From an uncultured delta proteobacterium (lineage in GTDB: Bacteria; Desulfobacterota; Binatia; UBA9968), in assembly GCA_963840855.1 (NCBI GenBank), contig CAWJBB010000079.1, positions 141,487 through 205,486 on the forward strand: a stretch of 64,000 nt of DNA, written 5' to 3'. The notes beneath the pieces were generated by a model. It made no database searches. It was given only the letters and a program-made list of their open reading frames with translations, and was not told the DNA's origin. A program made the translations under genes and the position numbers. Positions 6,630 through 30,937 of the stretch are shown piece by piece (position 1 is the stretch's first letter; each line of letters starts with the position of its first letter).

Positions 6630-7616
6630 TTACGAAACTTCGACAAAATAGGGGATCGCGCGGATGGCCACGCTAAGCGCAAGGACGCCGAGAGAAGCCA
6701 GAGCGAAGGGATAAAACCAAGGCACTTGTTTGCCCAGGCTTTTCACGAGAAAAGTTCCCTTCTCGGTTCTGTTGATATTCGCGTAGGCTTCCTCGAGCTG
6801 CTTCGCGTCGCGCACGTCAAAGTAATTCCCCCCCGTGCCTTCCACCGCCGCAATCAACCGCGGCGCGTCGCGCGCTTTTTCCACTTCTACGCCGATAAAA
6901 TGGATCTTGAATTTATCGTCCTTCGCCCGCGCGATGGCCTGATAGACATCGCGGCCGGTGTTGTTCTCGCCGTCGGTGAGAACGATCATCACCCTTCCTT
7001 TGTCGGCTCCTTTGGCGTCCCGCCCTTGCTTGGCGGCGAGGTCGAGGGAAGTCAGAATTCCTTCACCGATGGCCGTTTGGCCCTCGCTGGCGAGCATCTT
7101 GTTGTCGACCAGTTGGAGATAACGCTGCACGTAAGCGGAATCGAAGGTCATCGGCGCCACAACGTAGCCATTTTCAGAGAACACGACCACCGCCAACCGG
7201 TCGTCGTGGCGCCGCTCCACGAAGGTGGCCATAGCTTCCTTGACGGCTCCCAGCCGGTCTTTTTCTTTTGTCCGAATACCCAGCCGTTGCCGTTCCAACG
7301 CGCCCCTGAGGTCTATGGGCTCCTGCATACTGGAAGAGAGATCGACGACCATGATGATATCGAGACCTTTTTTAGCGATGAAACGTTGCGACGCGGGGAG
7401 CACCGGGTCCAGGAGCGCCACGACCAGCAATCCCAATGACAGAAGCTCCAGGAAACGCGGCAGATAAACCAGGCGGGAAGCCGGGCGAATTCGCGTCTTG
7501 AGATAGTGCAATAGAGGGTGGGTGAAGTAGCTCCGCGACCTGCGCCAGCGCACCGCCAAGACTAACACGATGAGCGGAATGAGAACCCACAGCAGATCCA
7601 AACGGGCAAACTTCAT
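6630..7616 (-). CDS. vWA-domain membrane protein, BatA/MxaC-like (copy 2)
   Basis: Same motifs as copy 1; one substitution (RRSRS vs RRPRS). Confidence 0.85.
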   Translation of the reverse strand: MKFARLDLLWVLIPLIVLVLAVRWRRSRSYFTHPLLHYLKTRIRPASRLVYLPRFLELLSLGLLVVALLDPVLPASQRFIAKKGLDIIMVVDLSSSMQEPIDLRGALERQRLGIRTKEKDRLGAVKEAMATFVERRHDDRLAVVVFSENGYVVAPMTFDSAYVQRYLQLVDNKMLASEGQTAIGEGILTSLDLAAKQGRDAKGADKGRVMIVLTDGENNTGRDVYQAIARAKDDKFKIHFIGVEVEKARDAPRLIAAVEGTGGNYFDVRDAKQLEEAYANINRTEKGTFLVKSLGKQVPWFYPFALASLGVLALSVAIRAIPYFVEVS

Positions 7617-7626
7617 GTCGTGGCCT

Positions 7627-8697
7627 TTATATGCGCAGCCTTTGGGTCAACTTGCCAAGCTCGCCTTGAACCTCATCTCGCCAATCTCTTCCCAAATCTG
7701 CGCCCCGCCTTGTGTAAAGCACCTGCTCGCATCTCTCGAGCAGGGTTTTGATCGGCGCTCCCAACCCCTCTTGCCCGTGGTTTTTTAAAGCGCTGGCAAC
7801 CTCATCTGGAGTCAGGCTTGAGACATCGATTTCCAGCGATTGACCGAGATACTCGCGCATGAACCGGGAGACTTCGGCATAGAACCGCAGCTGATCTTCG
7901 GCGGAATCCCGGCCCATCGTTTGAGTAGCGCGCAAGAAATCCTGCAGCATTCGGGCCTTGGCCCGCCGGGTCAAGTGTCGCGTTTTGGGTTTCTCCGTGG
8001 ACGACGATGTCCAGAGGCGCCGGGTGAATTGCACGGCTAAAAAAATCATCCCCGCCAAACCGAGCGCCAGGGCGGCCATCCATCGCTCGGGGCCAGCCCG
8101 CGAGATGACTCTGCTGTCACGGGGCCTAAGGGCATCGGCGGTCAAAGTCGAACGGAGGCCAACTCGGGTCGCGGGCACGGGAAAAGATTCCGCGAGAGTA
8201 TCTCCACCCTTCTCTGATCCCGCTTTGAGCGTAAAGTAATATAGGACGAAGGAAGGAATTCGTAGCTCGGCTTGCCCGCTCTCGTAGGTAGCGAGTAGAA
8301 GAATAACCTCGGTAACTTTCTTGTCGGCGCCGAATGCGCCATGACGCACGGCAACTTCGCGCACCACGAATGGCGCCAGATTCAAGCTCTCCTTTTTCAA
8401 AGGTTCCAAAACAATTTCGATGTTAGGATCATGGATAGCCCTCACGGTGTAGTGGAACAGGTCGCCAACCCAGACAGCAGTTTTATCCAAATGAGTCGAG
8501 ACGGCGATTTTACTCGTCTTGACCTTTTTCTCCACCGGTGCGGCGCCCAGCGTCGTTAAAGCGAGTAGCAACAATAGAAGGCGCAAGGCGTGAGGCGCAA
8601 GGCGTGTCTTTATCGTGGTTCGTGTTCGTGATTCGTGTTCACCCGAGCACGAGAAACGAGCACGATTTCCACGAGATGATTGAGCGTAACGAATCAT
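7627..8697 (-). CDS. MxaA/BatD-like protein (copy 2)
   Basis: As copy 1; HGAF vs HSAF. Confidence 0.6.
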   Translation of the reverse strand: MIRYAQSSRGNRARFSCSGEHESRTRTTIKTRLAPHALRLLLLLLALTTLGAAPVEKKVKTSKIAVSTHLDKTAVWVGDLFHYTVRAIHDPNIEIVLEPLKKESLNLAPFVVREVAVRHGAFGADKKVTEVILLLATYESGQAELRIPSFVLYYFTLKAGSEKGGDTLAESFPVPATRVGLRSTLTADALRPRDSRVISRAGPERWMAALALGLAGMIFLAVQFTRRLWTSSSTEKPKTRHLTRRAKARMLQDFLRATQTMGRDSAEDQLRFYAEVSRFMREYLGQSLEIDVSSLTPDEVASALKNHGQEGLGAPIKTLLERCEQVLYTRRGADLGRDWRDEVQGELGKLTQRLRI

Positions 8698-8737
8698 ATG
8701 ACTTTTTTTCAGGCGCCCGCCGGTGATACGACCTTAT

Positions 8738-9622
8738 TCATCGACGCCTCTTGCGAGCAAGAAAGAAACCGATCAGCGGGTCCAGATAGGGTTTTCCGGG
8801 ATGAAGAAACAGATGGTCTAAGCCCATGGTGTAAAGAGCGCGCTCCAGCACGACCCGTCGTTCCAGCATCATGGACCGGTAGAGATCCTTATTCTTCCTG
8901 GTCAGGTTGAGAACTATTCCAGCGCCAGATTCCGCGTCGCGCAGGCGCGCGAAGCCGCGCCCGCCGGGCAAGGCCTCCTCCCAGTTGTCCGCGACGATGA
9001 GGGGAATGAGATCGTGCTTGCGCGCGATATGCCTGAGCGCATGGCCATGCAAGGCCTCTTCCGCCTCAATGAAGTCCGAGATCAAAAAAATCAAGGCCGA
9101 GGTCCTAAGCTTGCCGAACAAATGCGCGAATGGGAGTGAAAAATCGGTCTTGACCGAGCTTGGTTTGACATCCCACAGGGATTCTAAAATCTGCCAGATT
9201 TGTCTGGAGCCCGCCTTGACCGGGATATCCAATTCGATTCTGTCGGTGAATCCCAGCAAGCCGACCTTCATATTGTCGCCAGTGGCGGAAAAAGCCAGGA
9301 TCGCGGCGACCCGCACGAGCAGCTCCCGTTTCGATTGGTCCACGCTGGCAAATTCCATCGACCGTGACAGGTCCGCGATGATGATGGCGCTCAACTCCTT
9401 CTCTTCGAAGTCCTTCTTCACGAACGGGTAGCGCATGCGCGCGGTGGCATTCCAGTCGATCTGCCGGTAATCATCGCCTTGTTGGTAAGGCTTGTGCTGG
9501 TCGAATTCGAAGCCTCTACCGCGCAGCGGGCTGCGATAGTCTCCCACCCGGTGATCCCGCACCGCCCGGCGCGTATAAATCTCGATGTAGCGCAACTCTT
9601 CCATCAACGCTCTAGGGATCAT
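8738..9622 (-). CDS. DUF58 family protein (MxaS-like) (copy 2)
   Basis: DUF58 motifs; IPVKAG vs IPLKAG. Confidence 0.92.
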   Translation of the reverse strand: MIPRALMEELRYIEIYTRRAVRDHRVGDYRSPLRGRGFEFDQHKPYQQGDDYRQIDWNATARMRYPFVKKDFEEKELSAIIIADLSRSMEFASVDQSKRELLVRVAAILAFSATGDNMKVGLLGFTDRIELDIPVKAGSRQIWQILESLWDVKPSSVKTDFSLPFAHLFGKLRTSALIFLISDFIEAEEALHGHALRHIARKHDLIPLIVADNWEEALPGGRGFARLRDAESGAGIVLNLTRKNKDLYRSMMLERRVVLERALYTMGLDHLFLHPGKPYLDPLIGFFLARKRRR

Positions 9623-9922: not shown

Positions 9923-10945
9923 CTATGGGACCGCGACTTTTGCCAATAATTCCTCAACGATTTCGTCCGGCGAGATGTTTTCCGCCTCCGCGCGCACGGT
10001 GCGGATCAAGCGGTGGCGCAGGGCGTCCGGAGCAATGCGCTTGACATCGGCGGGAAGAACGAAATCCCGGCCCGCGAAGAAGGCGGTGGTGCGCGCCAGC
10101 GCGAGAAGATGCTGCGCCGCCCGCGGCGACGCGCCATGAAGAACCATTTCACTGATCACGGGCAGGCTCACCGCCATCCCGTTGCGCGTGGCGCGGACGA
10201 TGCGGATGACATACTCTCTGATGGCATCGCTGACGAAGGTTTCCCCGCCGATGCGCTTGCGCAAGCGGATCACGTCGGCGGGCGCCATGACGGCCCTTAC
10301 GGTCAATTGGCTCAAGTTGCGCGCGAGCATCGCGGCCTCGTCCGCATGGGTCGGATAGTCGACCTTCACTTTCAAGGAAAATCGGTCCACTTGAGCTTCG
10401 GGGAGAGCGTAGACGCCTTCTTGTTCAATGGGATTTTGCGTCGCCAAGACCCAAAAGGGTTCATCCAGAGGATAGGTCGTCTCGCCGATGGTGACTTGCC
10501 GTTCCTGCATCGCTTCCAAAAGCGCGCTCTGGGTTTTCTGCGTGGCGCGATTGATCTCGTCGGCCAAAATCAAGTTGGCGAAGATCGGTCCCTTTTCGGT
10601 GCGGAACGTGCCCAGGGCAATATCAAAAATTCGCGTGCCGATGATGTCGGCGGGGAGCAGGTCCGGCGTGAACTGAATGCGTTGAAACCTGGCGCTGATC
10701 GTGTTGGCAAGGGTCATTACCGTCAGGGTCTTGGCCAGCCCGGGTACTCCCTCCAGCAGCACATGGCCGTAGCCCGATTTCTCCTCCTCGTCGCGCTTGA
10801 ATGAATAAGGGATCTCCGAGAACAAACCGATCAGCAGGCGTTGAATCAGCCATTCCTGGCCCACGATCACCTTGTTGATCTCTTGCGCCACCGCCTGGAT
10901 GGCTTCGAAGGCCTGCTCTTGGCCTATGTTTTCGCGCGTGTCCAC
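9923..10945 (-). CDS. moxR: MoxR family AAA+ ATPase (copy 2)
   Basis: Walker A GVPGLAKT, Walker B LADE, MoxR signature motifs. Confidence 0.95.
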   Translation of the reverse strand: MDTRENIGQEQAFEAIQAVAQEINKVIVGQEWLIQRLLIGLFSEIPYSFKRDEEEKSGYGHVLLEGVPGLAKTLTVMTLANTISARFQRIQFTPDLLPADIIGTRIFDIALGTFRTEKGPIFANLILADEINRATQKTQSALLEAMQERQVTIGETTYPLDEPFWVLATQNPIEQEGVYALPEAQVDRFSLKVKVDYPTHADEAAMLARNLSQLTVRAVMAPADVIRLRKRIGGETFVSDAIREYVIRIVRATRNGMAVSLPVISEMVLHGASPRAAQHLLALARTTAFFAGRDFVLPADVKRIAPDALRHRLIRTVRAEAENISPDEIVEELLAKVAVP

Positions 10946-10950
10946 GGCTA

Positions 10951-11958
10951 CTAACCCGAAATTAACAGCGTCAAAAAAAAGATGCCGGCCGCGGCCAGCA
11001 AAAAGCCATGATAAAAATCCTGGTATTCGATGACTTTTCTGAAGCCGGTGATATCGCGCTCTTTGAGAACGATTTCAGAAAAAGTCTTATCCAGCTCGAA
11101 ACCGCTGAGAGAGCGGTAAAACTTCCCTCCAGTCTTGTCCGCGATCCAGTGCAGGGTGCGCTCATCGAAACGAGTGATGATCCTTTTACCCTGGTCGTCC
11201 TCGAGGTAAACAGGCCGGCCGCTCTCGTACGCGATCGGTATCGGCGCGCCTTCCACGGAGCCTACGCCGACGGTATGGACCTTGACTCCTTGTTCTTTCA
11301 CCGCGTCAACCGCCCCATCGAGCTCCGCGCTGTTGTCCTCGCCGTCGGAAAGCAGGATAAAGACCTTCTTGTTGCGCGCCGCTGCAGGGTACACTTCGGC
11401 TTCTTTGCGAATCACGGTAATACCATTTCTGAGCCCGCGCCCGATATTGGTTCCATGGCTCACGCTGGTGTCTTCTTTCAGATAGTCGAGATAATAGAGA
11501 ATATTGTTGGCGTCTTCAGTCAGGTAGGAGATGATCACGCTGCCGCCGGCAAACGACACCAGCCCGACGCGGTCGTGCGCAAGCTTGGCGCGTGAAAAAG
11601 CGCCGATCACCTCCAACGCGCGCGCTAGCCGCGACGGTTGAATATCAGTGGCCCTCATGGAAGGAGATGTATCGAGCAAAAAGACCACGTCCAACACCCC
11701 CGGCTGGGGCACTTTTTGTTCTTGGACCAGTTGCGGATGGGCGAGGGCGAGAATGAGGGCCGCCATCACTAGATTCAAAAGCAAGAATCTAATAACGTCC
11801 TTGCGCAACGAAGAAAAACGAGAGATCCGTTTGAGCGCCAGCCCAACGCCCAGAGTCCGCCGGCTTTGGTGCTTGCCGTGGAGAAAATAGAGCCAACAGG
11901 GCAGCAAGGCGGCGAGCAAGAAGAACAGATTGAGATAGCCGGGATGTAAAAACTTCAT
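10951..11958 (-). CDS. vWA-domain membrane protein, BatB/MxaL-like (intact)
   Basis: Start MKFLHPGY, TM segments, MIDAS DTSPS, DIQPSRL, SDGE, C-terminal TM. Confidence 0.85.
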   Translation of the reverse strand: MKFLHPGYLNLFFLLAALLPCWLYFLHGKHQSRRTLGVGLALKRISRFSSLRKDVIRFLLLNLVMAALILALAHPQLVQEQKVPQPGVLDVVFLLDTSPSMRATDIQPSRLARALEVIGAFSRAKLAHDRVGLVSFAGGSVIISYLTEDANNILYYLDYLKEDTSVSHGTNIGRGLRNGITVIRKEAEVYPAAARNKKVFILLSDGEDNSAELDGAVDAVKEQGVKVHTVGVGSVEGAPIPIAYESGRPVYLEDDQGKRIITRFDERTLHWIADKTGGKFYRSLSGFELDKTFSEIVLKERDITGFRKVIEYQDFYHGFLLAAAGIFFLTLLISG

Positions 11959-12109
11959 CGGAGGCTTCGTGCCCTTCGCGTCCTTCGTGGGGCGTACTTC
12001 CCTCGCAACGAGTTCCTGTGGCAAGTTTTTACCACGAAGATCACGCAGGACTCGAAGATTAAATTAGCAAACATATCTCTTCACTGCCTTTTCCGCCGCC
12101 AAAACTCGT

Positions 12110-12727
12110 TCAGCCGCGCTTCTCAGGCGCCATTTGCTGCTGCGAGGGATCCTGGGGGCGCATCTTGTCCATGATCGATTTTACTTTTTGCTCCTGCGCC
12201 TTGCGGTCACGGTCCGGTTTCGCCAGGATGTTGCGGACCAGTTCATAATTGAACTTCAGGTCCCAGTCGTCCGGTTGCTGCGCAAGACCTCTTTGGTATT
12301 CTGACATAGCGGCCTTGAGTGCGTTGGTGGCGGTTTCCGCGTCTGGGCTTTCGATTGCCTGTCGAAACAGGACGTTTCCCATCCAAAAACTATAATCGGC
12401 GCTTTCGACCACCGCCGGCGCATCAACGGGCAGCTGCTCAAGCTTGGCCAGGGCGTCGCCGATCTTGCGCTGGCTATAGAGTAGGGCGACCTGGTTCAAG
12501 CTTGCTTGCTTGTGCTCCGCCGCAAGAATCTGAGTTTGCGAGGGAAGCATGTTCAACGGGCGCTCGACACGGGCATAGGTTTCCATAGCGCCAGCCATAT
12601 CGCCCTGGAAAACGGCCGTCTGGGCGCGATCCAATTCGAACATCACCCAGCCATACGCGATCAACAGCGCAGAGATCACGAAAACGAGAACATATCCCGC
12701 CAATTTTGCGGCATTCATTCTAGCCAT
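12110..12727 (-). CDS. TPR protein, MxaK/BatC-like
   Basis: N-terminal TM; FWMGN...YQRGLAQQPDDWDLKFNYEL TPR end motif. Confidence 0.7.
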   Translation of the reverse strand: MARMNAAKLAGYVLVFVISALLIAYGWVMFELDRAQTAVFQGDMAGAMETYARVERPLNMLPSQTQILAAEHKQASLNQVALLYSQRKIGDALAKLEQLPVDAPAVVESADYSFWMGNVLFRQAIESPDAETATNALKAAMSEYQRGLAQQPDDWDLKFNYELVRNILAKPDRDRKAQEQKVKSIMDKMRPQDPSQQQMAPEKRG

Positions 12728-12991: not shown

Positions 12992-13465
12992 TCAGCGGCT
13001 CTCCGTGGAAAATTTACGCTGCAACCAACCGGAAAACCCATCTTCTAGCACGCTGACATTGCGATACCCCTTGCCGCGCAATGCCAGGTAGGAATAGGAT
13101 TCGTCAACGCCTCCCGGTGGGCAGGAGCAATAGAGAATCACCCGGCCGGACTTGGGGATTTCCTGATAGCGCATCTGCAATTCAGCCACTGGAATCGAAC
13201 GAGCTCCCGGGAGACGCGATTTTTGAAAATCGCTGGTCGGACGAAGATCGACAAAGAAAATTTTTTCCCCTGCTTCGAGCATCCTCTTTACCCGCTCCGA
13301 CGGAATCGTTTCAATGTATTCCTCGTCGTGTCCGCCGTTAGCGAGGGCGGGAATAAGAAACAAAAGAAATACTATTGACAGATCCGCCAACTCTACAACC
13401 ACGCGCCGCATCGGGCTGCGTTGTAATACGCGATCGCCTGCCGCTTTGTGCCCGCCGGCGCTCAT
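12992..13465 (-). CDS. Exported rhodanese-like protein R1 (start uncertain)
   Basis: VDLRP-DF-SRLPGARSIP, ILYCSCP, LEDGFSGW; hydrophobic leader followed by GHDEE. Confidence 0.85.
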   Translation of the reverse strand: MSAGGHKAAGDRVLQRSPMRRVVVELADLSIVFLLFLIPALANGGHDEEYIETIPSERVKRMLEAGEKIFFVDLRPTSDFQKSRLPGARSIPVAELQMRYQEIPKSGRVILYCSCPPGGVDESYSYLALRGKGYRNVSVLEDGFSGWLQRKFSTESR

Positions 13466-15188
13466 GGTTTTAAGGCGTCGTAAATCAGCTTGCCGCCCAC
13501 GAGGGTCATGACGCTCTGAATTTTTGCGATTTCATCGTCCGGCACGTTTAGATAGTCTTTGTCGAGCACAACCATGTCGGCCCATTTGCCCGCTTCAAGT
13601 GATCCCAGAAGTTGATCGCGCAGGACATATTGCGAGGCCCAGCGCGTCGCCATCAGAAGCGCGGTGCGCCGATCTATGGCGTGGCGGGCGCCCCACACCT
13701 TGTCGTTCTCGTCTTTGCGCGTAACCAGAGTGCCGAGCCCGAAAAAGGGCTTGATTCCCAGGTCCGCGTCATCTTGCTCCCAGGTCACCCGGCCGCCGGC
13801 ATCGAGAATCCCTTGGATGGGCAAGACCCAACGGTGCGCGGCCTCCTCGCCATAGTCCCGCATCACGCGGTCGGCGCGCAGCAAGTACTTAGGCGCGCAG
13901 CTCCACATGATGTTGAGTTTCTTGGCGCGTTCGATCTGGTCGGGACGCGGGTTCATCGTGCAATGGTCGATAACATGGTTTTTCGCGCGAATTTGCTCCA
14001 GGGAAATCCCTGCTTCCGCGCTTGCCTTTTCAATGATGTCCAGCAACACATCGGTAGCCTTGTCACCCGCGCTATGCGTGCCGGCAATGCGAACGCCTGC
14101 CTTGACTGCGGCGTAGGCGGCGCGCCCGCGCACGTTGTCGATGGTCAGCCGGCAATCTTCCCGCGCTTTAACCTTGGCATCCGGCGATAGAGTCGTGCAA
14201 ACCCCGGGATAGGATGAATCCGTCGAGCCGGAAGAAATGCCGATGAGCCAGAATCGCTCCGTGCCATGACCGATGAGATTGCCGAACCGGTTCACAAAGC
14301 TTTCCGAGTAGATATTATCGCGATAGCCCGCTTCATTCGTGTAGGCAAGGCGGATCGGCATCATCCCTTTCTGGTCCATGTAATTGAAGGCGGATATCGC
14401 TTCCGATCCCAGAGACGAAGACCAGGTCGTGATCCCGGCGGCGCCCCACATCTCCAGCTCTTTGAGATAGACCGGTGCGAGATCTTCAGGCTTGGGCTTG
14501 GGAATAATTTCCTCGTAAAAGATCAGGCTCACGCCGGCGCCGATCCGACCCGTGAACTCTCCTTGATTATTTTTTGCCAGATCAAGAACCTTGGGATCGT
14601 AGCGCTTGAACAAGTATTCCAGCGCCCTGCTATTGGCCATAGCCTTGGTATCGGTGACATGCACCATCAAAGGATGACTCGGCGCCACTTTATCCAAATC
14701 GACCCTGGTCCGGTTGATAACGAAACTATCGGCAACATTGCGCGGACGAATGCGTGTGATAACCCACTCTCCGGGCTTTTTCGTTTTGACGGCCTCAGCG
14801 AGGCGCTCCAGCATTTCCTCTTCCGTGCGCCCTTCGATCTTGATCTCGAGCAGACTGGGATTCATCTGGGGCGCATGCCGGTCGAGGGCATATTCATGAA
14901 GGTGCGAATGAGTGTCGATCAAGCCGGGGATCACAGTTCTGCCTTGAAGGTTGATCCTGCGGGTGCGGGACCAGCCAGCGGGAGAACATCGGCGTCGCGT
15001 CCCACCCGCAGAATTTTTCCATCGCGCACGGCGATAGCCTCCGCGATGCTGAATTGTTCGTCTACCGTGATGATCTTGCCGTTATGCAGCACCGTTTCGG
15101 CGTAGCGGACGACCTCCGCGGGTAGCGATTGAGCCTGCGCCGGCGTCGCCAGCGCGAGCGAACTCAAAATTAAGAGAATCCATTTCAT
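13462..15188 (-). CDS. Exported amidohydrolase-3 (YtcJ-like) AH1, frameshift near 14966
   Basis: Signal peptide MKWILL...AQA, HNGKI-T, PGLIDTHSH, HSAGD, IDHC, GSLEAGKWAD, TLVGGK; joins ORFs 14931..15188 and 13462..14934. Confidence 0.88.
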
Positions 15189-20136: not shown

Positions 20137-20508
20137 TTAGTTTTTTGTTTCTCTAACAGTGAACGGAAAACTCTGCTCGACCACGTGCCCGTCCACAGAT
20201 AAAACGCGGAATTTCACGGTATATCTCCCTGCCTGAAGTTGCTTGACGCCGATGGCAAGCTGCTTTGGATCCTCATTGGACACCAACGCGTTGTCGAGGT
20301 CTACACGCTTGCCACCGGAATCAAGAACCGCGATGGACGAATAGCGTGGCTCCAAGCGCTCGTTAAACCAGATCTGAATTTTCGCCGGCGAAGCGAACAG
20401 CGTAGCGCGGCCCGGCGGCACGGATTTCACGAGATAAGCGTGTGCGGAAGCGAGCGCCGGAAACAAAAGAAACAACAAGAGCAAAACCTCAGCACGTCGC
20501 GCTTTCAT
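20137..20508 (-). CDS. copC: Periplasmic copper-binding protein CopC
   Basis: Signal ASA|HAYLVKSVP (His1), FNERLE, RVLSVDGH; no Met-rich Cu(I) loop. Confidence 0.92.
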   Translation of the reverse strand: MKARRAEVLLLLFLLFPALASAHAYLVKSVPPGRATLFASPAKIQIWFNERLEPRYSSIAVLDSGGKRVDLDNALVSNEDPKQLAIGVKQLQAGRYTVKFRVLSVDGHVVEQSFPFTVRETKN

Positions 20509-20552
20509 TTTTTGACGAAGCAACACGGCGAATTAAACAAAAGATCGGAGAT

Positions 20553-22491: not shown

Positions 22492-22923
22492 TTACTTCTT
22501 ACCCGTTTCAACCGGAAACTTTCGTTTAACCCATTCCTTAAAAGTATCCGCCATGACCGAAATATTGCGATACTCATGGTCGTCGCGCAGTGGTAGATAC
22601 GCTTCCTGAACCAGCTCGTCTTGCTCGCAGTCGCAGTAGAGCACCACCCGGCCCGCCTTGGGAATCTCCCTTAAACGTTTTTCAAGCTCGTTCATGGGGA
22701 GCGAACGGGCGCCCGGGATGCGTGCCTGCTTAAAGTCTTTGGCGGGCCGGAGGTCGAAAAGAATGAGCGGTTCGCGCGCAGCGAGATAATACTTGACCCG
22801 CTCCATCGTCACTATCGAGACAGGTTCCTCCGAGCCGTGGCCGGCCACAGCGATCCTCGTGGGGAACCCCACGACCATGGCGAAAAGAAAGACGAAAACT
22901 CGATGGCCAGAGCACAGGCGCAT
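22492..22923 (-). CDS. Exported rhodanese-like protein R3
   Basis: Leader ...IAVA|GHGSEE, FDLRP, RIPGARS, VLYCDCE. Confidence 0.87.
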   Translation of the reverse strand: MRLCSGHRVFVFLFAMVVGFPTRIAVAGHGSEEPVSIVTMERVKYYLAAREPLILFDLRPAKDFKQARIPGARSLPMNELEKRLREIPKAGRVVLYCDCEQDELVQEAYLPLRDDHEYRNISVMADTFKEWVKRKFPVETGKK

Positions 22924-22975: not shown

Positions 22976-24817
22976 TTACTCGATAACCCCCGGCGCTTCC
23001 TTGCCGCCAAACTCCGCCACCTGGGGACCGCGGGTCCTCCCTCTCAACGCGGAGTTTTCGTGGATAATCTTGCCACTTACCATAGTGAGCACTGGAGCGA
23101 CAGTTCCGATCTCGCCTTCGGGCACCGTCAGGTAATCGCGGTTGAGGACCAGCAAGTCAGCGAACTTTCCCGGCTCCAGCGAACCCAAAACATTTTCCTT
23201 CAACACATACTCTGAAGCCCACACGGTTCCCATCTTTAGCGCGAGCACGCGGTCGATCTTCTCCCGCGCCGCATAAACCTTACCGTTCACCTCACGCGTC
23301 ACTAAGAGTTCCAGGTAGTGGAATGGACCCTTTGTCGGCGTGAAATGAATATCTGTTTCCAGTACTGTCTTCACTCCGGCTTCGATAAGGCTCTTGGCGG
23401 GAGCGACCCAGTTGAGATATTTCTCGCCATAATCGCGCAGCACTTCCGGGCTGGCGTTTTCGATATACTTGGGACTGCAGCTCACGAGAATACCGAGCTT
23501 CTTTAATCTCGGCATTTGATCCGGTCTCGGATTCATCGTGCAGTGATCGACAGAATGACGCCGGGCCTGGATTTGCTCAGGCGACATGCCGGCTTTCTTG
23601 CTCCCCTCTTCGATGACATCCATCACCTGGTCCAAGGTGGCGTCCCCCGCGACATGCGTGTTGCTAAAACGCAGCCCTCGGGCGACGATTTCCTCTAAGA
23701 CCTTGCGCCTGTAGTCCCCGCCATCCAAACGAGTCATCTCCCTCGATTTGATTTCCGCCGGCGCGTCAGCGCTGGATTTTAGCTGTGGGTACGAGCCATC
23801 GGCGCTGACCAGGCTGATGCCGTTGGGCCAGAGATACTCAGATCCCTGCCCCTCTACCAGTTCCATGTAGCCGCGCACCATGGCCGGTCCTTGTGAAGTT
23901 CCGGTAATGAGACTTCCCAAACCATAGGCGAAGCGCACGACCATTTCGCCCTTTTGATCGAGAAGCCGATAGGCGCGAATCGTATTCAACGCTGAGGTAG
24001 AGGAAGACCAGGTGGTCACGCCATAGGCCGCCAATTCCTCCTGTTCTTTCTTGTAGAGATCGGCCAACAGAGGAAGCTTGCCATCGAGGATGATGTCGGT
24101 TTGGAGCGAGCGCCGGATGCTGGCGCTCCATACGATGCCATCCTCGCTGATCTCTTCATCCAATGCGCCATAGTGGCGCTTGAATGCCTCAAGGGCGCGG
24201 CTGCTGAACAATCCACGATTGCCGGCCTGGATGAAAATCGCATGATCAGGCGAGATTTTATCCAGCTCTTCTTTGTTGAACATCTTGAGGTCCGTCATCG
24301 CCACTTTGATGTCCACTTGTTTGCCATCGCGCATGACGCGATTCGGTAGCCTCACCCATATCCACTCGCCCGGTTGGGCTTTCTTTACCTCCGCCTGAAC
24401 GGTTTCCAGCGTCGCCTTTCTCAGCTCTGCCCACTCCCGCCCCTTGATTGCCGGTTTTCTCAGCTCAGGGAGGTTCCTCCCCCAGTGGTCCATGGTGTAT
24501 TCCATCGCGTGGTAGTGGGTGTCGATGATTCCAGGGACCACGGTCCTACCGCGCAAATCGATGATCTCGGTCTTGGGGCCTTTCAGCGCGAGAATTCTAT
24601 TGTTGGCACCGAGAGCCAAAATCCTGCCATCTCGGATGGCGAGCGCCTGGACGATCGTTCCGGGATTGGTGGATGTTGTCTTGTCGTCCACCGTGACGAT
24701 CTTACCATTGTGCAGAATCGCTTCCGGATAGCGGATCAATTCCGGCGGCAGGTTTTGCGCGAATGCAGGACTCAAGGAAAGTAGACCAACTAAAAAGGAA
24801 AAAAATAGCCTTCTCAT
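22976..24817 (-). CDS. Exported amidohydrolase-3 AH4
   Basis: Signal ...PAFA|QN, DTHYH, HVAGD, VDHC, SCSPKY, GSLEPGKFAD. Confidence 0.92.
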   Translation of the reverse strand: MRRLFFSFLVGLLSLSPAFAQNLPPELIRYPEAILHNGKIVTVDDKTTSTNPGTIVQALAIRDGRILALGANNRILALKGPKTEIIDLRGRTVVPGIIDTHYHAMEYTMDHWGRNLPELRKPAIKGREWAELRKATLETVQAEVKKAQPGEWIWVRLPNRVMRDGKQVDIKVAMTDLKMFNKEELDKISPDHAIFIQAGNRGLFSSRALEAFKRHYGALDEEISEDGIVWSASIRRSLQTDIILDGKLPLLADLYKKEQEELAAYGVTTWSSSTSALNTIRAYRLLDQKGEMVVRFAYGLGSLITGTSQGPAMVRGYMELVEGQGSEYLWPNGISLVSADGSYPQLKSSADAPAEIKSREMTRLDGGDYRRKVLEEIVARGLRFSNTHVAGDATLDQVMDVIEEGSKKAGMSPEQIQARRHSVDHCTMNPRPDQMPRLKKLGILVSCSPKYIENASPEVLRDYGEKYLNWVAPAKSLIEAGVKTVLETDIHFTPTKGPFHYLELLVTREVNGKVYAAREKIDRVLALKMGTVWASEYVLKENVLGSLEPGKFADLLVLNRDYLTVPEGEIGTVAPVLTMVSGKIIHENSALRGRTRGPQVAEFGGKEAPGVIE

Positions 24818-24839
24818 CTGTATCTCCCTTCTTGATTCT

Positions 24840-25277
24840 CTAGCGGGTTACTTTTTTGGCAATCGTCTCCATCGGATAACCGCGGTTTACCCAGCCCTGG
24901 AATCCATCCGCCATTATGGCAGCATTGCGGTAACCATAGTCTTTGAGTAACAAGTAAGCGTCGTCGATAATCTGATTTTGCGGGCAGTCGCAATAGAGCA
25001 CCACGCGACCCGATCGCGGAATTTCCGTGTAGCGCTTAGCCAGTTCCTTCAGCGGAACGGAACGCGCACCGGGGAGCCGCGCTTTCTGAAAGTCAGCGCC
25101 GGCACGAAGATCGACGATGATGATCTTCTCGCGCGCATCGAGAAAAGCCTTCACCTGCTCAACCGTGACCGTGACCACATCTTCTTCACTGCCATGCCCG
25201 GCCCATGCCACCGCGGGCGAAACCATCACGAGTGCGAGTATAAGAGCGGCGAGCTTTCTATCATTTGTCACATGCAT
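24840..25277 (-). CDS. Exported rhodanese-like protein R4
   Basis: Leader ...AWA|GHGSEED, RLPGARSVP, VLYCDCP, DGFQGW. Confidence 0.88.
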   Translation of the reverse strand: MHVTNDRKLAALILALVMVSPAVAWAGHGSEEDVVTVTVEQVKAFLDAREKIIIVDLRAGADFQKARLPGARSVPLKELAKRYTEIPRSGRVVLYCDCPQNQIIDDAYLLLKDYGYRNAAIMADGFQGWVNRGYPMETIAKKVTR

Positions 25278-25291
25278 AGTTCGTGTCTGCG

Positions 25292-27089
25292 CTATTTGCT
25301 CGGCGTTAGTGCAAGACCCACCGCCGGTAATTTCTCCGCCTTGGCGAATTGCGGATTGGTGTACACCAGCTTACCCGCGACCGCAGTCAGCATTACGTTG
25401 ATCTTCGAGAGATCTTCGTCCGGAGTATTCAGGTAATCGCGGTCTATAATGACGAAATCCGCCCACTTCCCACGCTCGAGGGAGCCCAGAACCTTTTCAC
25501 GCAGAACGTATTCGGCGGCCCAACGGGTGAACATCTTTAGAGCCGTAGACTTATCGACGGCTTGCTTTGCTCCCCAGGTTCTTCCCTCGCTGTCCTTGCG
25601 GGTAACCGCATACTTGATGTGAGCAAAGGCGCCGCCTTCCTTTCTGTGCACCCTGCGATCGTCCATTTCCATAACGACTTTCCCGCCGGCTTGTAGAATG
25701 TTCTGGATGGGCGCGTTCATCTCATGCGCGTATTTTTCGCCGTAGTCCCGGGATATGTCGGCAGCATCCTCTATATATCGGGGCGCGCAACTCCAGATGA
25801 TGTCGAGTTTTTTTCCCCGTTCGATTTGGTCGGGCCGCGGGCTCATGCCGCAGTGGTCAATGTTATGCTTCTTGGCCCGGATCTCATCGGCGCTTATTCC
25901 CGCCTCCGCGCTCGCCTTCTCGATCAGGTCGAGATATTTATCGACCGCGCCATCGCCATAGACATGGGTTCCTGAGATGCGCTGCCCTGCTTGAACCGCG
26001 GCGCGCATGATTTTGTATTGCGCATCCGCCTCGCATATCTCCCGCGACTTGATTTCGTCACGCGCATTAACCGTGGTGCAGTGCCGCGGGTAACTGCTGT
26101 CGAGAGCGGACAGCGATACGCCAATGGTCCACAAGTAGTTCGTGCCGTGACCGACATTGTTTCCCAGCCGCTTGTAGAACTCTGCCGGCATGGGCAAAAC
26201 CTGCGGCGCCCATTCGATGCGAGTACGCAAAGCGGATCGGCATCTCACCGGCACGGTCCAGCACGGCAAAGCCGTCAAAAACCTTGGCCGTTGGTAGCGA
26301 CGATGACCAAGTGGTAACGCCAAGCGCAGACCAGGCCTGTAACTCCTTCTTATAAATGGCTGCGAGTGTTTACGGCTTTTGCACGAGAATCTCGCCGATT
26401 AACGTGCGCATGGCGCCGGAGCCGATCGGCCCCCGTGGAGTCCCTTTCGCGTCCGAGGGTATCTCTTCTGGAAGCTCGCCGAAGTAGTCAGTGAACATCT
26501 TAAAGATGAGACTGTTCGCCCTTCTATCCGTGCCGCGGAGCTGGACGACAATCGGATTCTTAGGCGCAAGCTCGTCCATTTCTTTCAGCATCATCTTTTT
26601 GCCGAACTCCTCAGCGACGCTAGACGGCTGGAGTTGCACGTGGACGATCTTGCCCGCGGGAGTTTTCGCAAGCATCTCCTTCAAGCGAGCGATCGCTTCG
26701 TCGACGGATTTAACCCGAACCTCGGTCTGCCGGTACTGCGCCAACTCCGGCTCGAGCTTTTCAAGATCGTTCGCCCAATTTGCCGGTGCGTAATCGAACA
26801 GGTGGGAATGTGTGTCGATAAACCCAGGTAGTACTGATTTACCCTTCAGGTCCAGTTGCAGGGTTTTAGGGCCGGCTAGCGCGAGGATTTCGCTGTTGCT
26901 GCCGACGGCCATGATTTTGCCGTCGCGCACGGCAAGGGCCTGCGACACGGAAAAACGCTCGTCCACCGTAACTATTTTCCCATTGTGATACACAGCATCC
27001 GCGAAAATCACCATCCCTTTACCGGTTTGCGCCGCGGCTTGACTCGTGAGAAGACAGTACGACATTAAGAAGCTAATCAGCCATCTCAT
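25292..27089 (-). pseudogene. Exported amidohydrolase-3 AH5, broken by an in-frame TAA (26370..26372) and a frameshift near 26185 (may be sequencing error)
   Basis: The three ORF pieces reconstruct one paralog: signal, DTHSH, GVTTWSS, HVYGD, IDHC, SCAPRY. Confidence 0.8.
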
Positions 27090-27184: not shown

Positions 27185-28301
27185 TCACTGCTCCGTAGCC
27201 CGCGGCGCTGGCAATCCCCACACTTCAACGGCGATGCGCTCGGCAATCTTGTTTCCTTTTAGCAAGCAGGCGACATTGCAAAACGAAACGCTGGCGCTCT
27301 TTGTTAGCTGATGAGTTAAATTTCCCTCAACCAGGAACGAACCTCTACCGGGTTCCGTCGATTCGACGATTTGCTGGGCCTCGCCGAGAAGCTAAAAACT
27401 CCAGCCAGAGAAGCGCTGCATGAGGATTCTTGGCGCCCGCATAGATCGCCTGGGGATCGTGCAAGGTGATCGGGAGAATCTCCGGTACTACCATCTTGAT
27501 GGGCAGATTCGGATCCTTCTTCAACATGCGGCTCATCGGATGGATATACATCCCGCAGTTCATGGAGAGCTTGCCCTCGGCCAGCAAACCGAGGTTGCGG
27601 GTATTGCCCCGGCCAAACACTGCCTGGTTATCTTTCAATCCCCGGGCAAAGTCGAAAAGTCTTTCCTCCCCCCAGCGCGGGATGAGCCATGTCAGCATAT
27701 TGGGATTGGCATCGACGCTGAACCTGCCTTTCCATTGCGAGTCGAGGCAGCTCGCCCAACCCTTGGGGGCTTTGTCCGCTGCTATCAGGCTTGAGTTGTA
27801 AGTGATGATGCCGGTGTTGTTCGACGGCCACACAATCATGCCCGTGTCATCGATCATCTCGATGGGAATTTTGATCTGACCATCCCGCGCCATCGCCTTG
27901 AGGTCATACTTTTTGACAAGCCCCCGCTCAGGATATTCGTTTGGGAAAGAGCCGCTAAATCCTAAAACATCGACGACCGCCTCGCCTGCGACAAGCTCAT
28001 CGAGCGCTTGTTTGGGATTTGGCCTCGAGCCCATTTTGCTGGCGCCCCACCCGGGCTGCACAAAGGGATACCTTTTGCCGAACGCCTTGAGAAGCTCCGG
28101 TATCGTTGCTTTGTCATACTCGGGCCGCAGCGCGGGATGCAAAAGCAGTTTCCCTTCCTTCTTCGCTCCCTCGATCATCTGCGCGCTTGACACATAAATC
28201 GTTGCCGGCCTTGGCTGGGCCGTGGATTGGCTCGCGGAAAACATTGCCGCGAGAGCAAACGGGATAGAAAAACAAACATGGAAATATTGCGCTAGTTTCA
28301 T
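27185..28301 (-). CDS. ABC extracellular solute-binding protein (Fe/polyamine-type fold), frameshift near 27385
   Basis: GAKKEGKL, YNSSLI-DKAPKGW, AKNPHAALLWLEFLAS; shifted frame continues to TGA at 27185. Confidence 0.78.
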
Positions 28302-28600: not shown

Positions 28601-29071
28601 CTACCGCCGGCCCGCCTCGATGGGAAATTTACGCTTTTCCCAGCCGTAAAACCCTTCCAGCATGAAAGCGATATTTCTGTACCGGTTGTCCTCAAAAAGC
28701 TGAAACACGGAGTCCGGAATCTCGTCTTGCGGCGTTGCCGCGTATACAATGACCCTTCCCGACTTGGGAATCTCGCCCAACCGCTTGTCCAACTCCGCCA
28801 TCGGAATCGAGCGGGAGCCGGGAAGTCTTTTGTCTTGGAACTCTTTTGCCGGCCGGATATCGATGAGCAAAAATTTTTCGCCGGCGTCGAGCAGCAGCTT
28901 GAGGCGGTCGGCCGCGATGGTAGTAACGTCCCTGCCCTCATGCCCGGCTTCCGCCAGCGCCGGCGCTAAAGCAAGAACCAAGACCGTTAGAAAAATAATT
29001 ACATGGCCCGCCCTGACGATTCTTATCGCCGATTGCTTTTCCCTCTTGATGGCTCGTTTACGGATTGCCAT
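28601..29071 (-). CDS. Exported rhodanese-like protein R5, Cys-free
   Basis: Leader ...AEA|GHEG, IDIRP, RLPGSRSIP; active loop VYAATP instead of LYCxCP. Confidence 0.85.
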   Translation of the reverse strand: MAIRKRAIKREKQSAIRIVRAGHVIIFLTVLVLALAPALAEAGHEGRDVTTIAADRLKLLLDAGEKFLLIDIRPAKEFQDKRLPGSRSIPMAELDKRLGEIPKSGRVIVYAATPQDEIPDSVFQLFEDNRYRNIAFMLEGFYGWEKRKFPIEAGRR

Positions 29072-29101
29072 CGCTGCTGCGGCTCAGTTATCTTCTCTCG
29101 C

Positions 29102-30937
29102 CTACTTACTTGCCGCCCTTTCATAAACCGTCTTGCCGCCCACGATGGTCAGATCGACCAGCAACTCGTCGATCTTGTCCTCCGCGACGGACATGTAATC
29201 GCCGTTGAATACCACCAGGTCGGCATATTTGCCGCGCTCGATGGAACCCAGCATCTTCTCCTCGCCGATGAATTTCGCCGCATTATACGTCGTCATCAAC
29301 AAAGCCTGTTTCCTATCGATGGCTTGATTCTTACCCCACACCCGCCCTTCGCGGGCGCTGCGCGTGCTTTTATCCGTCCGGGTCACGAACCGCTCGATCC
29401 TCCAGACCGGCGGCTCATCCGGCTTACCGCCCTCGATGTGGACATTCACCCCGGCATTGATCAAGTCCTTGACCGGCTGCATGGAATGCATCTGCTCGCC
29501 GTACTGCGCGAAGAGCATCTCTTCGCCCCGCACGACGCGCTGGCTGAAAATCTCGGAATTCAACCCGAATGCCAATCCGTCGCCGAGCTGCTTGGACAGG
29601 GCGAGCGATTTCGCATCCCAGATCAAGTTGTGATCGAGCGCGTTGCGCCCGAGCATGGTGTGCACCTTGATCTCAGGTTGCTTCTCGGCGTCCGCCAGAC
29701 TTTCCAGCACGATTGTCGTCGCGCCGCTGCCCATATTGTGGTTACCGCTGATATTCCAGCCGTGTTTGCGCAGGAGTTGTAGAGTCGTCCATTCGGTATC
29801 GCGTTTCTCTGCGTCGTTAAGATCGCGCCACTGCTTGCCGGTCCATTCCGGCCCCGTCCATTTGTTGCGTCCGTAGAGCCCGCCCTTGACCTCGGCATGA
29901 GCGGCCCGCTTGGGCTCGTTGGTCATGATGCCGCCATCATCCGACGCGCCGTCCACCGGTCCCACCGCGGCGCCAACGATTCTTACCATGTCATCGCCGA
30001 GTCTAAAGTTCACCAGGTTGGGAGTACGCCGCAGAATCTGGTCGGCCATGGGATTTTGCCGCGCGAAATCTAAGGTAGGGCGGATACGCATCTTGAGGCG
30101 GTCGTGATGGAACATCTGGCTAACGATGGTCACCGTGTAGCCGCTCGCATGACCGGTGATCGTCGTCACCCCGACCCTGAGAAATTGGTCGATGATTTCC
30201 GCCTGCTCCTTGAAGATCTCTTCGGTGAGCTCCGGCCAGTCGCGCAGGTTCCAGCCGATAAATCCCAGGGCCTGACTGAAGAGCTGGCCGGTGGGATTGC
30301 CGTTCGCATCCTTGACGACTTGAAAGTGCTCTTTGCGCATTCCCGCGGCGAACGCCTTCTCCAACATGAGCGTGTTGACGACTCCCTCTGAGCTGGAAAG
30401 CGACAGCATCAGAGGATTATTGGGCGCGAGCTTGTCCAGGTCCCTGGCCGTCAGTTTCGACAGATCGCTGACGAATTCGTCCGCCATGCGGACGTATACG
30501 CTCGAGCCGGGCTTTGCCTGCGAAACCAGATTGCCGACCTGAGTCAACATCTCGGGGACGTTCTTGCCTCGAACCCTCCTGCCAACTTTTCCATTGACCA
30601 TGGTGTCCTTATAGAGATCGCCGCCCGCAAAGGCATTGTCGCCGTCGCTGTCGATGAATCCTGGGACGACGCTTCTCCCTCTGAGATCGACGCGGCGCGT
30701 GTCCGGCCCCGCGAGCCTCATCATTTCAGCGCTGCTCCCCACCGCGAGAATCTTTCCGTCCCGCACCGCCACCGCCTCGGCGACGGTGAAATTCTTGTCA
30801 GCGGTGAGCACTTTGCCGTTGTGCAAAATCAAATCGGCGTAGCGGATCAGCTCCGGCGGCAGCGTCTGAGTGACGCCCTGGCCTGCGAGCATCAACAAGA
30901 AAAACCAGCCCGGATAAGCGGATAAAATTGTTCTCAT
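29102..30937 (-). CDS. Exported divergent amidohydrolase-3 AH6 (HxH replaced by DxD, Cys-free)
   Basis: HNGKVLT, PGFIDSDGD, GVTT, HNMGS, LDHN, GSIERGKYAD, TIVGGK. Confidence 0.87.
   Translation of the reverse strand: MRTILSAYPGWFFLLMLAGQGVTQTLPPELIRYADLILHNGKVLTADKNFTVAEAVAVRDGKILAVGSSAEMMRLAGPDTRRVDLRGRSVVPGFIDSDGDNAFAGGDLYKDTMVNGKVGRRVRGKNVPEMLTQVGNLVSQAKPGSSVYVRMADEFVSDLSKLTARDLDKLAPNNPLMLSLSSSEGVVNTLMLEKAFAAGMRKEHFQVVKDANGNPTGQLFSQALGFIGWNLRDWPELTEEIFKEQAEIIDQFLRVGVTTITGHASGYTVTIVSQMFHHDRLKMRIRPTLDFARQNPMADQILRRTPNLVNFRLGDDMVRIVGAAVGPVDGASDDGGIMTNEPKRAAHAEVKGGLYGRNKWTGPEWTGKQWRDLNDAEKRDTEWTTLQLLRKHGWNISGNHNMGSGATTIVLESLADAEKQPEIKVHTMLGRNALDHNLIWDAKSLALSKQLGDGLAFGLNSEIFSQRVVRGEEMLFAQYGEQMHSMQPVKDLINAGVNVHIEGGKPDEPPVWRIERFVTRTDKSTRSAREGRVWGKNQAIDRKQALLMTTYNAAKFIGEEKMLGSIERGKYADLVVFNGDYMSVAEDKIDELLVDLTIVGGKTVYERAASK

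Follow-up and report, generated by a model that had tools for sequence, protein, structure and literature searches.

Why would a single run of bacterial genes carry six amidohydrolases, five small rhodanese-fold proteins, copper-handling proteins and a MoxR/VWA module? The question is raised by a stretch of DNA of 64,000 nucleotides (nt; hereafter the window) from G000, a metagenome-assembled genome (MAG) of 7.1 Mb in 93 contigs that is 94% complete and 8% contaminated. Our analysis shows an operon that is conserved in one lineage from soil, whose MAG records carry the labels Binatia or 'Deltaproteobacteria', and that is laid out like the mxa cluster of methanol dehydrogenase (MDH). With a confidence somewhat short of even, we read it as an Mxa-like assembly cluster for Sec-exported metalloenzymes, in which the rhodanese-fold proteins (R1 to R5; collectively R) would serve as metal or redox accessory proteins of the amidohydrolases (AH1 to AH6; collectively AH).

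Pfam scans of the minus-strand open reading frames (ORFs) between 6630 and 30937 give a single co-directional run of six Amidohydro_3 genes (AH6 to AH1), five small rhodanese-fold genes (R5 to R1) and accessory genes, among them one for a solute-binding protein (SBP). The order, AH6-R5-SBP-AH5-R4-AH4-R3-AH3-CopC-AH2-R2-CopD/cytochrome c-AH1-R1-TPR-VWA-MoxR-DUF58-X-VWA, is the one proposed in an earlier note on this DNA, and its statement that a rhodanese-fold gene follows five of the six AH genes also holds, at AH-R gaps of −4 to ~200 nt; the stop of AH1 and the start of R1 overlap by 4 nt. The genes of the run are as follows (TM, transmembrane; aa, amino acids; "exported" refers to the N-terminal leader).

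AH6, 29102..30937, minus strand: exported Amidohydro_3 paralogue in which SDGD replaces the HxH metal motif; Pfam PF07969, 114 bits.
R5, 28601..29071, minus strand: exported rhodanese-fold protein that keeps the N-terminal His and has no Cys (YAATP); Pfam PF00581, 40.5 bits.
SBP, 27345..28301, minus strand: exported, solute-binding-protein-like, C-terminus probably frameshifted; Pfam PF13343, 25.8 bits (weak SBP_bac_6).
AH5, 25292..27089, minus strand: broken by an in-frame TAA and a frameshift; two Amidohydro_3 fragments.
R4, 24840..25277, minus strand: exported rhodanese-fold protein with AGHG after the leader and LYCDC; Pfam, 49.8 bits.
AH4, 22976..24817, minus strand: intact exported Amidohydro_3 protein; Pfam, 141.9 bits.
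R3, 22492..22923, minus strand: exported rhodanese-fold partner; Pfam, 43.3 bits.
AH3, 20612..22373, minus strand: frameshifted near its 3' end; no R gene after it in the window's genome.
CopC, 20137..20526, minus strand: predicted periplasmic copper-binding protein with HAYL after the leader and a DGH motif; Pfam PF04234, 80.3 bits.
AH2, 18167..19927, minus strand: intact, 586 aa; Pfam, 137.9 bits.
R2, 17493..17966, minus strand: exported rhodanese-fold protein paired with AH2, with CopD-cytochrome c as the next gene; Pfam, 50 bits.
CopD-cytochrome c, 15381..17438, minus strand: fusion with a Cys-less thioredoxin-like domain; Pfam CopD 76.3, Cytochrom_C 47.2 and AhpC-TSA 23.5 bits.
AH1, 13462..15188, minus strand: split by a frameshift; Pfam Amidohydro_3.
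R1, 12992..13465, minus strand: exported rhodanese-fold protein of the LYCSCPPGG type; Pfam, 52.3 bits.
TPR-like protein, 12110..12727, minus strand: N-terminal TM segment, first gene of the MoxR module; Pfam TPR-S, 20.2 bits, below cut-off.
VWA (first), 10951..12024, minus strand: BatA/BatB-like, with TM segments; Pfam VWA 69.2 and BatA N-terminal 22 bits.
MoxR, 9923..10945, minus strand: AAA+ ATPase (cytoplasmic); Pfam AAA_3, 211.8 bits.
DUF58 protein, 8738..9622, minus strand: MxaS type; Pfam DUF58, 172.5 bits.
X, 7627..8697, minus strand: membrane protein with two hydrophobic segments; no Pfam or NCBIfam match.
VWA (second), 6630..7616, minus strand: BatA-like membrane protein; Pfam VWA, 65.6 bits.

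A short basic stretch followed by a hydrophobic segment opens every AH, R, CopC and SBP product, as judged by eye and by hydropathy scan, so that the claimed export-type leaders are present throughout; no twin-arginine motif was read by eye in any of these leaders. Given leaders of this kind, the AH proteins are probably exported unfolded by Sec and would then receive their metal outside the cytoplasm.

The five R proteins score 40–52 bits against the Pfam Rhodanese family (PF00581, cut-off 22.2), and R4 is 45–53% identical to the other four. What sets them apart is found at two sites. In an alignment of 37 R proteins a His stands just after the leader in 37/37, within a motif [AGS]-H-[DGE] that leads into acidic residues, and an LYCxC loop is found in at least 90%; among the 87 metagenome R proteins that cover both sites (from the survey described below) the His is present in 87/87 and CxC in 81/87, the remaining 6 being of the Cys-less R5 type. 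A third set, the 39 single-domain proteins of up to 200 residues among the 150 best matches of a whole-library search, has the His in 33 of the 34 that cover the site and CxC in 27/39, with the first Cys missing in 9/39. Across the three sets, therefore, the N-terminal His, and not the Cys, is the constant feature of R. The catalytic Cys of a canonical rhodanese is part of a cationic loop of six residues (CX5 with Arg or Thr). The first Cys of R1–R4 does lie at the canonical catalytic position, but the loop, C-[DSAGT]-C-P-x-x, has no basic residue and often carries Asp (CDC) instead. The general statement that rhodaneses carry persulfides, on which the earlier note leaned, is therefore doubtful for a family whose hallmark is an N-terminal His and in which several clades lack the Cys. 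Judged by these motifs, R is not a classical rhodanese, and we favor a metal or redox accessory function.

In structure, R is ordinary: the AlphaFold2 model of R2 has a rhodanese domain with pLDDT >95 and places the His in a flexible tail (pLDDT 60–78), and its Foldseek neighbors are ordinary single-domain rhodaneses and sulfurtransferase-type domains such as YgaP, GlpE and PDO-rhodanese fusions. The ESM Atlas returned for R2 only 'rhodanese-like' clusters (Binatota, Methylomirabilota, Thermodesulfobacteriota) and no functional lead. The best curated family is NCBIfam NF041203, rhodanese_LYCAU (rhodanese-related (seleno)protein), against which R4 scores 59.8 bits, below the cut-off of 115. Like PspE, Sud and the LYCAU family, R is an exported single rhodanese domain with a Cys at the canonical position, and its LYCxC parallels LYCAU; unlike them, it scores below the family cut-off, lacks a basic residue in the loop and includes Cys-free clades, and to our knowledge an invariant N-terminal His with an acidic stretch is no feature of the three. 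Rhodanese homologs with one in-frame TGA are common in the window's phylum (in G000, contig C55, 1752–2066, and contig C52, 11579–11902) and are likely selenocysteine members of an LYCAU-type family.

R2 has at least 177 homologs, typically of 150 aa. Among 401 sampled genomes of the window's phylum, strong R matches occur in G000 alone (five, 185–224 bits; next best 95), and a search of 1.84 billion cluster representatives gave 73 proteins at E ≤ 1e-30, among which are many unrelated rhodaneses with several domains; R is thus a small and narrow family. AH is a large one, with at least 652 homologs of AH2 at E ≤ 1e-20 among 8000 candidates scored.

Does the arrangement recur? The earlier note had proposed a survey for AH-R pairs with copCD and moxR-vWA genes, and the combination is indeed found again, in seven MAGs and on many soil contigs. 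A pattern scan of one genome per species, with ORFs scored against profiles of the window proteins, gave 75 AH loci (L numbers below denote loci of our surveys). R was found at eight of them, which together hold 21 R genes and come from seven related MAGs whose records are labeled Binatia, 'Deltaproteobacteria', Thermodesulfobacteriota or Acidiferrales; all eight keep AH-R pairs together with CopC, CopD-cytochrome c and SBP. L005 repeats the window's order gene for gene, and in L004 the cluster is reduced to AH2-R2-CopC-CopD-cytochrome c-TPR-VWA-MoxR-DUF58-X-VWA, its minimal form. Five of the eight (L003, L004, L005, L006, L008) have the MoxR module, or at least the genes with which it starts, downstream, and the order inside the cluster is rearranged between genomes. 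A search of JGI metagenome contigs, mostly from soil, with an R alignment profile added 80 loci with 92 R genes. For 66 R genes the contig extends 700 nt or more upstream, and directly before them stood AH (52), R (2), CopC (1) or no profiled gene (11); directly after the 92 R genes stood AH (23), CopD-cytochrome c (14), CopC (10), SBP (6), TPR (4) or R (2), while in 14 cases no gene was detected there and in 19 the contig ended. The MoxR module is downstream on five metagenome contigs (L124, L168, L174, L176, L177), most of the others being too short to show one. The accessory genes hold their places as well: SBP is directly upstream of an AH in nine of 11 non-edge metagenome cases, with SBP-AH gaps of 4 nt in L002 and L003; the TPR position is conserved in L003–L006, L008, L124, L168, L174, L176 and L177, and X is conserved in L004, L006, L168, L176 and L177.

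The R genes that lack an upstream AH proved informative about what R may do. We examined seven of the 11, and all seven (L171, L179, L184, L188, L189, L190, L192) follow an exported LVIVD β-propeller of 467–510 aa, with a 20-nt gene overlap in five of the seven; in L184 and L192 the propeller-R pair is followed by CopC and CopD-cytochrome c. R is therefore not exclusive to AH, which weakens the 'dedicated' partnership claimed in the earlier note. The R-CopC-CopD-cytochrome c unit is portable between two unrelated exported enzyme folds, which argues that R is an accessory of the upstream enzyme linked to copper handling, and the LVIVD propeller may be a second, undescribed type of enzyme that relies on these accessory genes. 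Of the seven propellers, six match SBP56 (the methanethiol oxidase family) weakly, at E 4e-5 to 5e-3, all below cut-off; a sequence search of the PDB gave for the propeller just a 34-residue match to haloalkylphosphorus hydrolase, which is uninformative on metal.

The AH proteins themselves are predicted, from family, motifs and fold, to be hydrolytic YtcJ-like Amidohydro_3 enzymes: AH1–AH6 score 89–150 bits against PF07969 (cut-off 29.7; 35 bits for the N-terminal fragment of AH5), and the AlphaFold2 model of AH2 (pLDDT 93) is a TIM-barrel with a composite β domain. In Foldseek its first neighbors are 3icj and 3igh, at E 1e-28, followed by TrzN, imidazolonepropionase and deaminases at 12–16% identity. 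NCBIfam equivalog models matched AH solely over the N-terminal composite domain and far below cut-offs. Four metal-ligand His (numbered as in AH2: H102, H104, H383 and H420) do not vary across 45 sequences and are kept in AH1–AH5; AH6 and its L003 ortholog have SDGD where others have THxH, and so lack the HxH metal motif. A coupled loss of the AH6 HxH and the R5 Cys was considered and rejected: CDC is intact in the R that comes after the L003 AH6 ortholog, and L013 has a Cys-less R that sits after no AH of the AH6 type. AH2 is the most conserved paralog and the core of the minimal clusters, with identities of 68% to AH3, 50% to AH4, 43% to AH1, 35–47% to AH5 and 32–37% to AH6; the paralogs, described as strongly diverged in the earlier note, have diverged unevenly.

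The copper and MoxR/VWA genes are assigned by domain. CopC and CopD score above their Pfam cut-offs (80.3 and 76.3 bits) and below those of the corresponding NCBIfam models (copper_CopC, 79.3 against 95; CopD equivalog, 158.6 against 195). An N-terminal His with D-x-H, which we take to be the copper(II) site of CopC proteins, can be read in CopC here (HAYL after the leader, and DGH), and copper binding is accordingly a prediction. The CopD fusion has eight predicted TM segments, a cytochrome c domain with CAGCH and the Cys-less AhpC/TSA thioredoxin-like domain. Downstream, an AAA_3 ATPase is followed by a DUF58 protein and accompanied by VWA membrane proteins in one run, the hallmark of a MoxR/VWA module; the first and second VWA proteins score 85 and 95 bits (the second 94.9 against BatA) where the NCBIfam BatB and BatA models have cut-offs of 350 and 380.

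Among known systems the closest in layout is mxaFJGIRSACKL. According to a 2025 account (PMC12276312), MxaR, S, A, C, K and L together control calcium incorporation into periplasmic MDH, which is made without calcium when any of them is missing and is rescued by calcium in vitro; of the six, MxaR is a MoxR ATPase and three (MxaS, MxaC and MxaL) are VWA proteins; and MxaJ, which resembles periplasmic binding proteins, acts as a chaperone. The analogy to MxaRSACKL drawn in the earlier note is therefore apt. Both clusters combine genes for an exported enzyme and a small exported protein with an SBP-fold protein, a c-type cytochrome, MoxR, DUF58, two VWA membrane proteins and further membrane or TPR-like proteins, a likeness that does not imply orthology to Mxa proteins. 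They differ in that the enzyme here is an amidohydrolase TIM-barrel and not a pyrroloquinoline quinone propeller, is present six-fold, and has a small partner of rhodanese fold and not MxaI; in addition, the SBP is of another family (weak SBP_bac_6), CopC and CopD are present, and the cytochrome forms one protein with CopD. For the copper genes a precedent exists in Thioalkalivibrio, where copCD adjoins the gene of thiocyanate dehydrogenase (TcDH), is co-induced with it and is read, in PMC5744179, as the enzyme's copper supply; on this precedent we read CopCD as a supply line. The TcDH cluster shares with ours a copC/copD pair next to an exported-enzyme gene, and the propeller-R-CopC-CopD loci are similar in layout; however, TcDH is a proven copper enzyme exported by the twin-arginine (Tat) route, and its cluster has no rhodanese-fold partner, MoxR module or amidohydrolase. 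Finally, the Bat or 'MoxR proper' operons (MoxR-DUF58-BatA-BatB-TPR) share the domain set and the VWA membrane topology, whereas here the BatA/BatB models match far below cut-off, the gene order is different and the module is tied to specific exported enzymes. We found no published description of an amidohydrolase/rhodanese/CopCD/MoxR or LVIVD/rhodanese combination among open-access papers and bioRxiv preprints, in line with the earlier note, whose author knew of no described system of this kind; for rhodanese with CopC/CopD the same literature gave just two thiocyanate papers with a passing mention of rhodanese. MoxR/VWA- and CopCD-assisted maturation of periplasmic enzymes is of a known kind; most novel here is the R family, with its portability between enzyme folds.

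Taken as an assembly cluster, the operon might work as follows. Most AH genes would be co-transcribed with a small exported R, which would act as a dedicated metal or redox accessory (a chaperone or a small subunit) rather than a thiosulfate sulfurtransferase; copper would be supplied or reduced by CopC together with the fusion of CopD and cytochrome c; the SBP-like proteins upstream of some AH may be binding or chaperone proteins; and the membrane-spanning TPR-VWA-MoxR-DUF58-X-VWA module would complete metal insertion at the expense of ATP, as MxaRSACKL does for calcium. A role of the module in metal insertion is suggested by its adjacency to AH, at five of eight genome loci, five metagenome loci and eight loci of Gammaproteobacteria. 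The idea in the earlier note, of an exported metalloenzyme family with rhodanese partners and a shared maturation machinery, is the best available reading, one to which we give slightly less than even weight.

A bolder form of the same proposal makes R a new class of periplasmic copper metallochaperone: an N-terminal X-His would take Cu(II) from CopC, the LYCxC thiols or the CopD-fused cytochrome c would reduce it and keep it as Cu(I), and R would load the upstream enzyme, the AH paralogs and LVIVD propellers both being copper-dependent and finished by the Mxa-like MoxR/VWA machine. The idea derives from the neighboring CopC and CopD and from the GHK peptide, an N-terminal tag that binds Cu(II) tightly (PMC7709198) and whose Cu(II) complex is reduced by thiols (PMC7709198 and PMC8653159). 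We regard it as a long shot. Were the X-His copper reading true, no copper enzyme of the amidohydrolase superfamily would have preceded the AH proteins, and a metallochaperone role of R would be a new function for the rhodanese fold and would offer a handle on the poorly understood 'MoxR proper'/Bat operons.

Several observations weigh against an assembly cluster, and some against copper in particular. The best PDB matches of AH2 by both sequence and fold are two uncharacterized Pyrococcus hydrolases, 3icj and 3igh, at 21–22% identity; these YtcJ-like proteins share the fold and the HxH/His/His pattern, but they are archaeal with no leader noted, whereas the AH are exported and encoded in multi-paralog operons. 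The AH ligand set (HxH, His, His, Asp/Glu) is of the ordinary Zn/Fe/Ni/Mn type, and we know of no precedent for copper in an enzyme of the amidohydrolase fold. Mature R would begin with X-His only if signal peptidase cuts two positions before the His, at an A-x-A-like site recognized by eye. No AH-R, propeller-R or Cop-R fusion was found at E ≤ 1e-10 among 450 longer candidates with R2 as query, a weak negative. In L192, the single LVIVD-R-CopCD locus with enough flank, no MoxR module adjoins. Since G000 carries six MoxR genes, a chance AH-MoxR adjacency is not negligible, and the MoxR link could be synteny by descent in one lineage plus one other.

That other lineage is gammaproteobacterial and so belongs to a second phylum. 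At eight loci from seven MAGs (L009, L012, L014, L016–L019, L029) an AH of ~40% identity lies directly upstream of MoxR-DUF58-X-VWA(-VWA), and no R or CopCD gene is present at any of the eight. Because the MAGs are probably close kin, we count them as one further lineage and not as seven; two of the records are labeled Klebsiella pneumoniae, which looks like a mislabel. These operons hold two to four exported AH paralogs, one or two B3 metallo-β-lactamase-like genes and a small conserved anchored protein with a AVDEEYFIPYTDNYGY motif; in L009 an AH is immediately preceded by a cupredoxin gene, and in L012 a cytochrome c gene adjoins an AH and a metallo-β-lactamase gene. In L016, DUF4159 and citrate synthase genes lie close by. 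Other AH loci of the same MAGs (L010, L020, L021) have no MoxR in view. In a tree of AH-linked MoxR proteins the gammaproteobacterial sequences do not form an exclusive clade with the window's MoxR, branches are long, and G000 itself has a MoxR paralog that is no more distant, so that the two AH-MoxR links may have arisen separately, unless noise in the tree hides a common origin; this too counts against a shared system. So do the Acidobacteriota, in which Terriglobia MAGs carry tandem arrays of seven to eight AH paralogs (L022, 5635–20060; L024, 3593–19735) with no R, Cop or MoxR gene within 10-kb flanks: in general, then, AH proteins can do without these partners. The arrays have variant motifs, ATHDH...DHM/EHM. 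The earlier note had named a lack of adjacent partners at AH homologs as fatal to its idea; outside the lineage R is indeed absent, from Gammaproteobacteria and Acidobacteriota alike, but MoxR is present in the former.

The pairing itself was examined in trees, from which ORFs below 450 residues (AH alignment) and a partial R fragment (L013, 8301–8606; R tree) were left out. Ortholog groups match for AH1-R1, AH2-R2 and AH5-R4 across the window, L005 and L003, and for AH4-R3 and AH6-R5 across the window and L005. The expected congruence fails for AH3: it is the well-supported sister of AH2, but the R after AH3 in L002 and L003 falls in the other main R clade, with R1, and forcing the partners of the AH2/AH3/L004 clade together is rejected (p-AU 0.0012, for a group defined after the tree was seen), a further point against the assembly cluster. 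The R after the AH6-type gene of L003 likewise lies outside the R5 group. On these trees, AH-R pairs are stable in the short term and did not arise by simple co-duplication. A predicted AH2-R2 complex had an ipSAE of 0.01 in two runs in which controls did not fold, and speaks neither for nor against binding.

If R acted like its sulfurtransferase-type neighbors, the cluster would concern sulfur: the AH and LVIVD enzymes would release or consume a thiol, sulfide or persulfide, the AH by hydrolyzing thio-carbamate-like compounds and the propeller by a methanethiol-oxidase-like reaction; R would be a periplasmic carrier of sulfane sulfur like Sud or PspE; and CopCD would serve a copper enzyme or guard against copper-thiol chemistry. 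The confident fold with its sulfurtransferase-type neighbors, the canonical first Cys of R1–R4, the LYCAU family as nearest NCBIfam model and the sub-cut-off SBP56 matches of six propellers are all consistent with such a role. It fits poorly with a loop that has no basic residue and often an Asp, with conserved Cys-free clades (the R5 type in 6/87, and 9/39 representatives without the first Cys) and with an invariant feature that is the N-terminal His. The gammaproteobacterial metallo-β-lactamase genes, tried as persulfide dioxygenases that would supply a sulfur link, match B3 β-lactamases at E 1e-47 to 1e-26 and ETHE1 only at 9e-6, and that idea was rejected. We consider the sulfur explanation unlikely.

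To the same degree we doubt that there is no single system at all, i.e. that paralogous periplasmic hydrolases that scavenge organic nitrogen, CopCD homeostasis genes, small rhodaneses and a general operon of the Bat type (envelope or aerotolerance) are merely co-located and were inherited as a block in one lineage. Every R-containing genome locus does come from one group of related MAGs, with G000 the only one of the 401 phylum genomes to give strong R matches; both VWA proteins resemble BatA and BatB, G000 has several MoxR operons, and the internal order of the cluster varies between genomes. A mere block, however, does not readily account for coupling as tight as the 4-nt AH1/R1 and 20-nt LVIVD/R overlaps and the 4-nt SBP-AH gaps, for the regular position of AH after SBP, for R traveling with CopC and CopD to a different enzyme type, or for AH meeting MoxR again in Gammaproteobacteria at ~40% AH identity.

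Very improbable is a redox-linked AH that passes electrons to the CopD-fused cytochrome c, or to the gammaproteobacterial cupredoxin or cytochrome c, as MDH does to cytochrome cL, with R as a small subunit: a c-type cytochrome domain within the cluster, the cupredoxin (L009) and cytochrome c (L012) genes next to AH and the likeness to mxaFJGI-RSACKL suit it, but AH has the ligand pattern and the fold of an amidohydrolase that hydrolyzes, we saw no genes for cofactor biosynthesis in the window, and a cytochrome fused to CopD fits Cu(II) reduction better.

The preferred reading, a periplasmic assembly cluster, bears on a process known for few cases: metal supply to Sec-exported enzymes in the periplasm has been described for MDH and Mxa, for the CuA and CuZ centers and, by inference, for TcDH. 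The cluster brings a soil-abundant enzyme family, the small R family with its simple motif (N-terminal X-His plus CxC), a copper import/reduction fusion and MoxR/VWA together in one operon, and so provides a compact, conserved test bed. Should the parts prove unrelated, AH would still be a large group of uncharacterized periplasmic hydrolases, one that Binatia-like bacteria share with Acidobacteriota and marine Gammaproteobacteria.

Three of the six AH genes (AH1, AH3, AH5) are not intact in the assembly. AH1 has a 1-nt frameshift near 14959–14966 that puts the leader and the first ~75 residues, from a start at 15188, in another frame; a 1-nt frameshift near 20753 removes the last ~50 residues of AH3; and AH5 has an in-frame TAA at 26370–26372 and a frameshift near 26201. 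L003 and L013 have intact orthologs of AH1 and AH5, and the indels in these two genes are missing from soil metagenome contigs that match the window at ~97% identity: one (~97.7% identical) has one extra base at 14966, another (~97%) a 1-nt deletion at 26187, and a 1-nt deletion at 27383 falls inside the SBP gene. These contigs are relatives and not the source sample (best share of sampled words 0.22), and none of those listed spans the AH3 frameshift, the AH5 TAA or the 1–5060 duplication described below. The breaks reflect either assembly error or strain-specific decay; with several 1-nt indels spread across neighboring genes, assembly error is the simpler reading. Many genes are split in the long-read MAG loci L005 and L006 too, and related contigs from two runs share a +1/−1 indel pair 4 nt apart in AH2 (18537–18541), a compensated local frame difference. 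Contig pieces from an RNA library (run X19), a type of library that may contain DNA, map to CopD, AH3, AH4, SBP, R5 and AH6.

The earlier note implied that the run ends at 6630, but part of the module is repeated at the left end of the window:

Second VWA-X-DUF58-MoxR-truncated first VWA copy, 1..5060, minus strand: 99.45% identical to 6494–11554.

The two copies differ by 27 mismatches and one gap, and the 1–5060 copy ends inside the first VWA gene. Of 17 differing codons in the four duplicated genes, 11 are synonymous and six non-synonymous; as synonymous differences predominate, the copies differ by real variation rather than random read error, being either paralogs or two strains joined by the assembler. 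The repeat is either a real nested tandem duplication or an assembly join of two strains. The stretch 5037–6613 (plus strand) holds an N-terminally truncated SBP_bac_6 fragment, which starts at the junction of the duplication, and after it, between the module copies, an NMT1/SsuA-like binding-protein gene (NCBIfam SsuA_fam, 65 bits, below cut-off). Two further partial copies of the 5061–6572 SBP/NMT1 segment (97.8% and 99.9%) are found left of the window, at 14584–17487 of L112 (G000:C79:124000-141486). Elsewhere in the window, 34980–39132 encodes five paralogous small TPR proteins of 209–232 aa on alternating strands, a local expansion.

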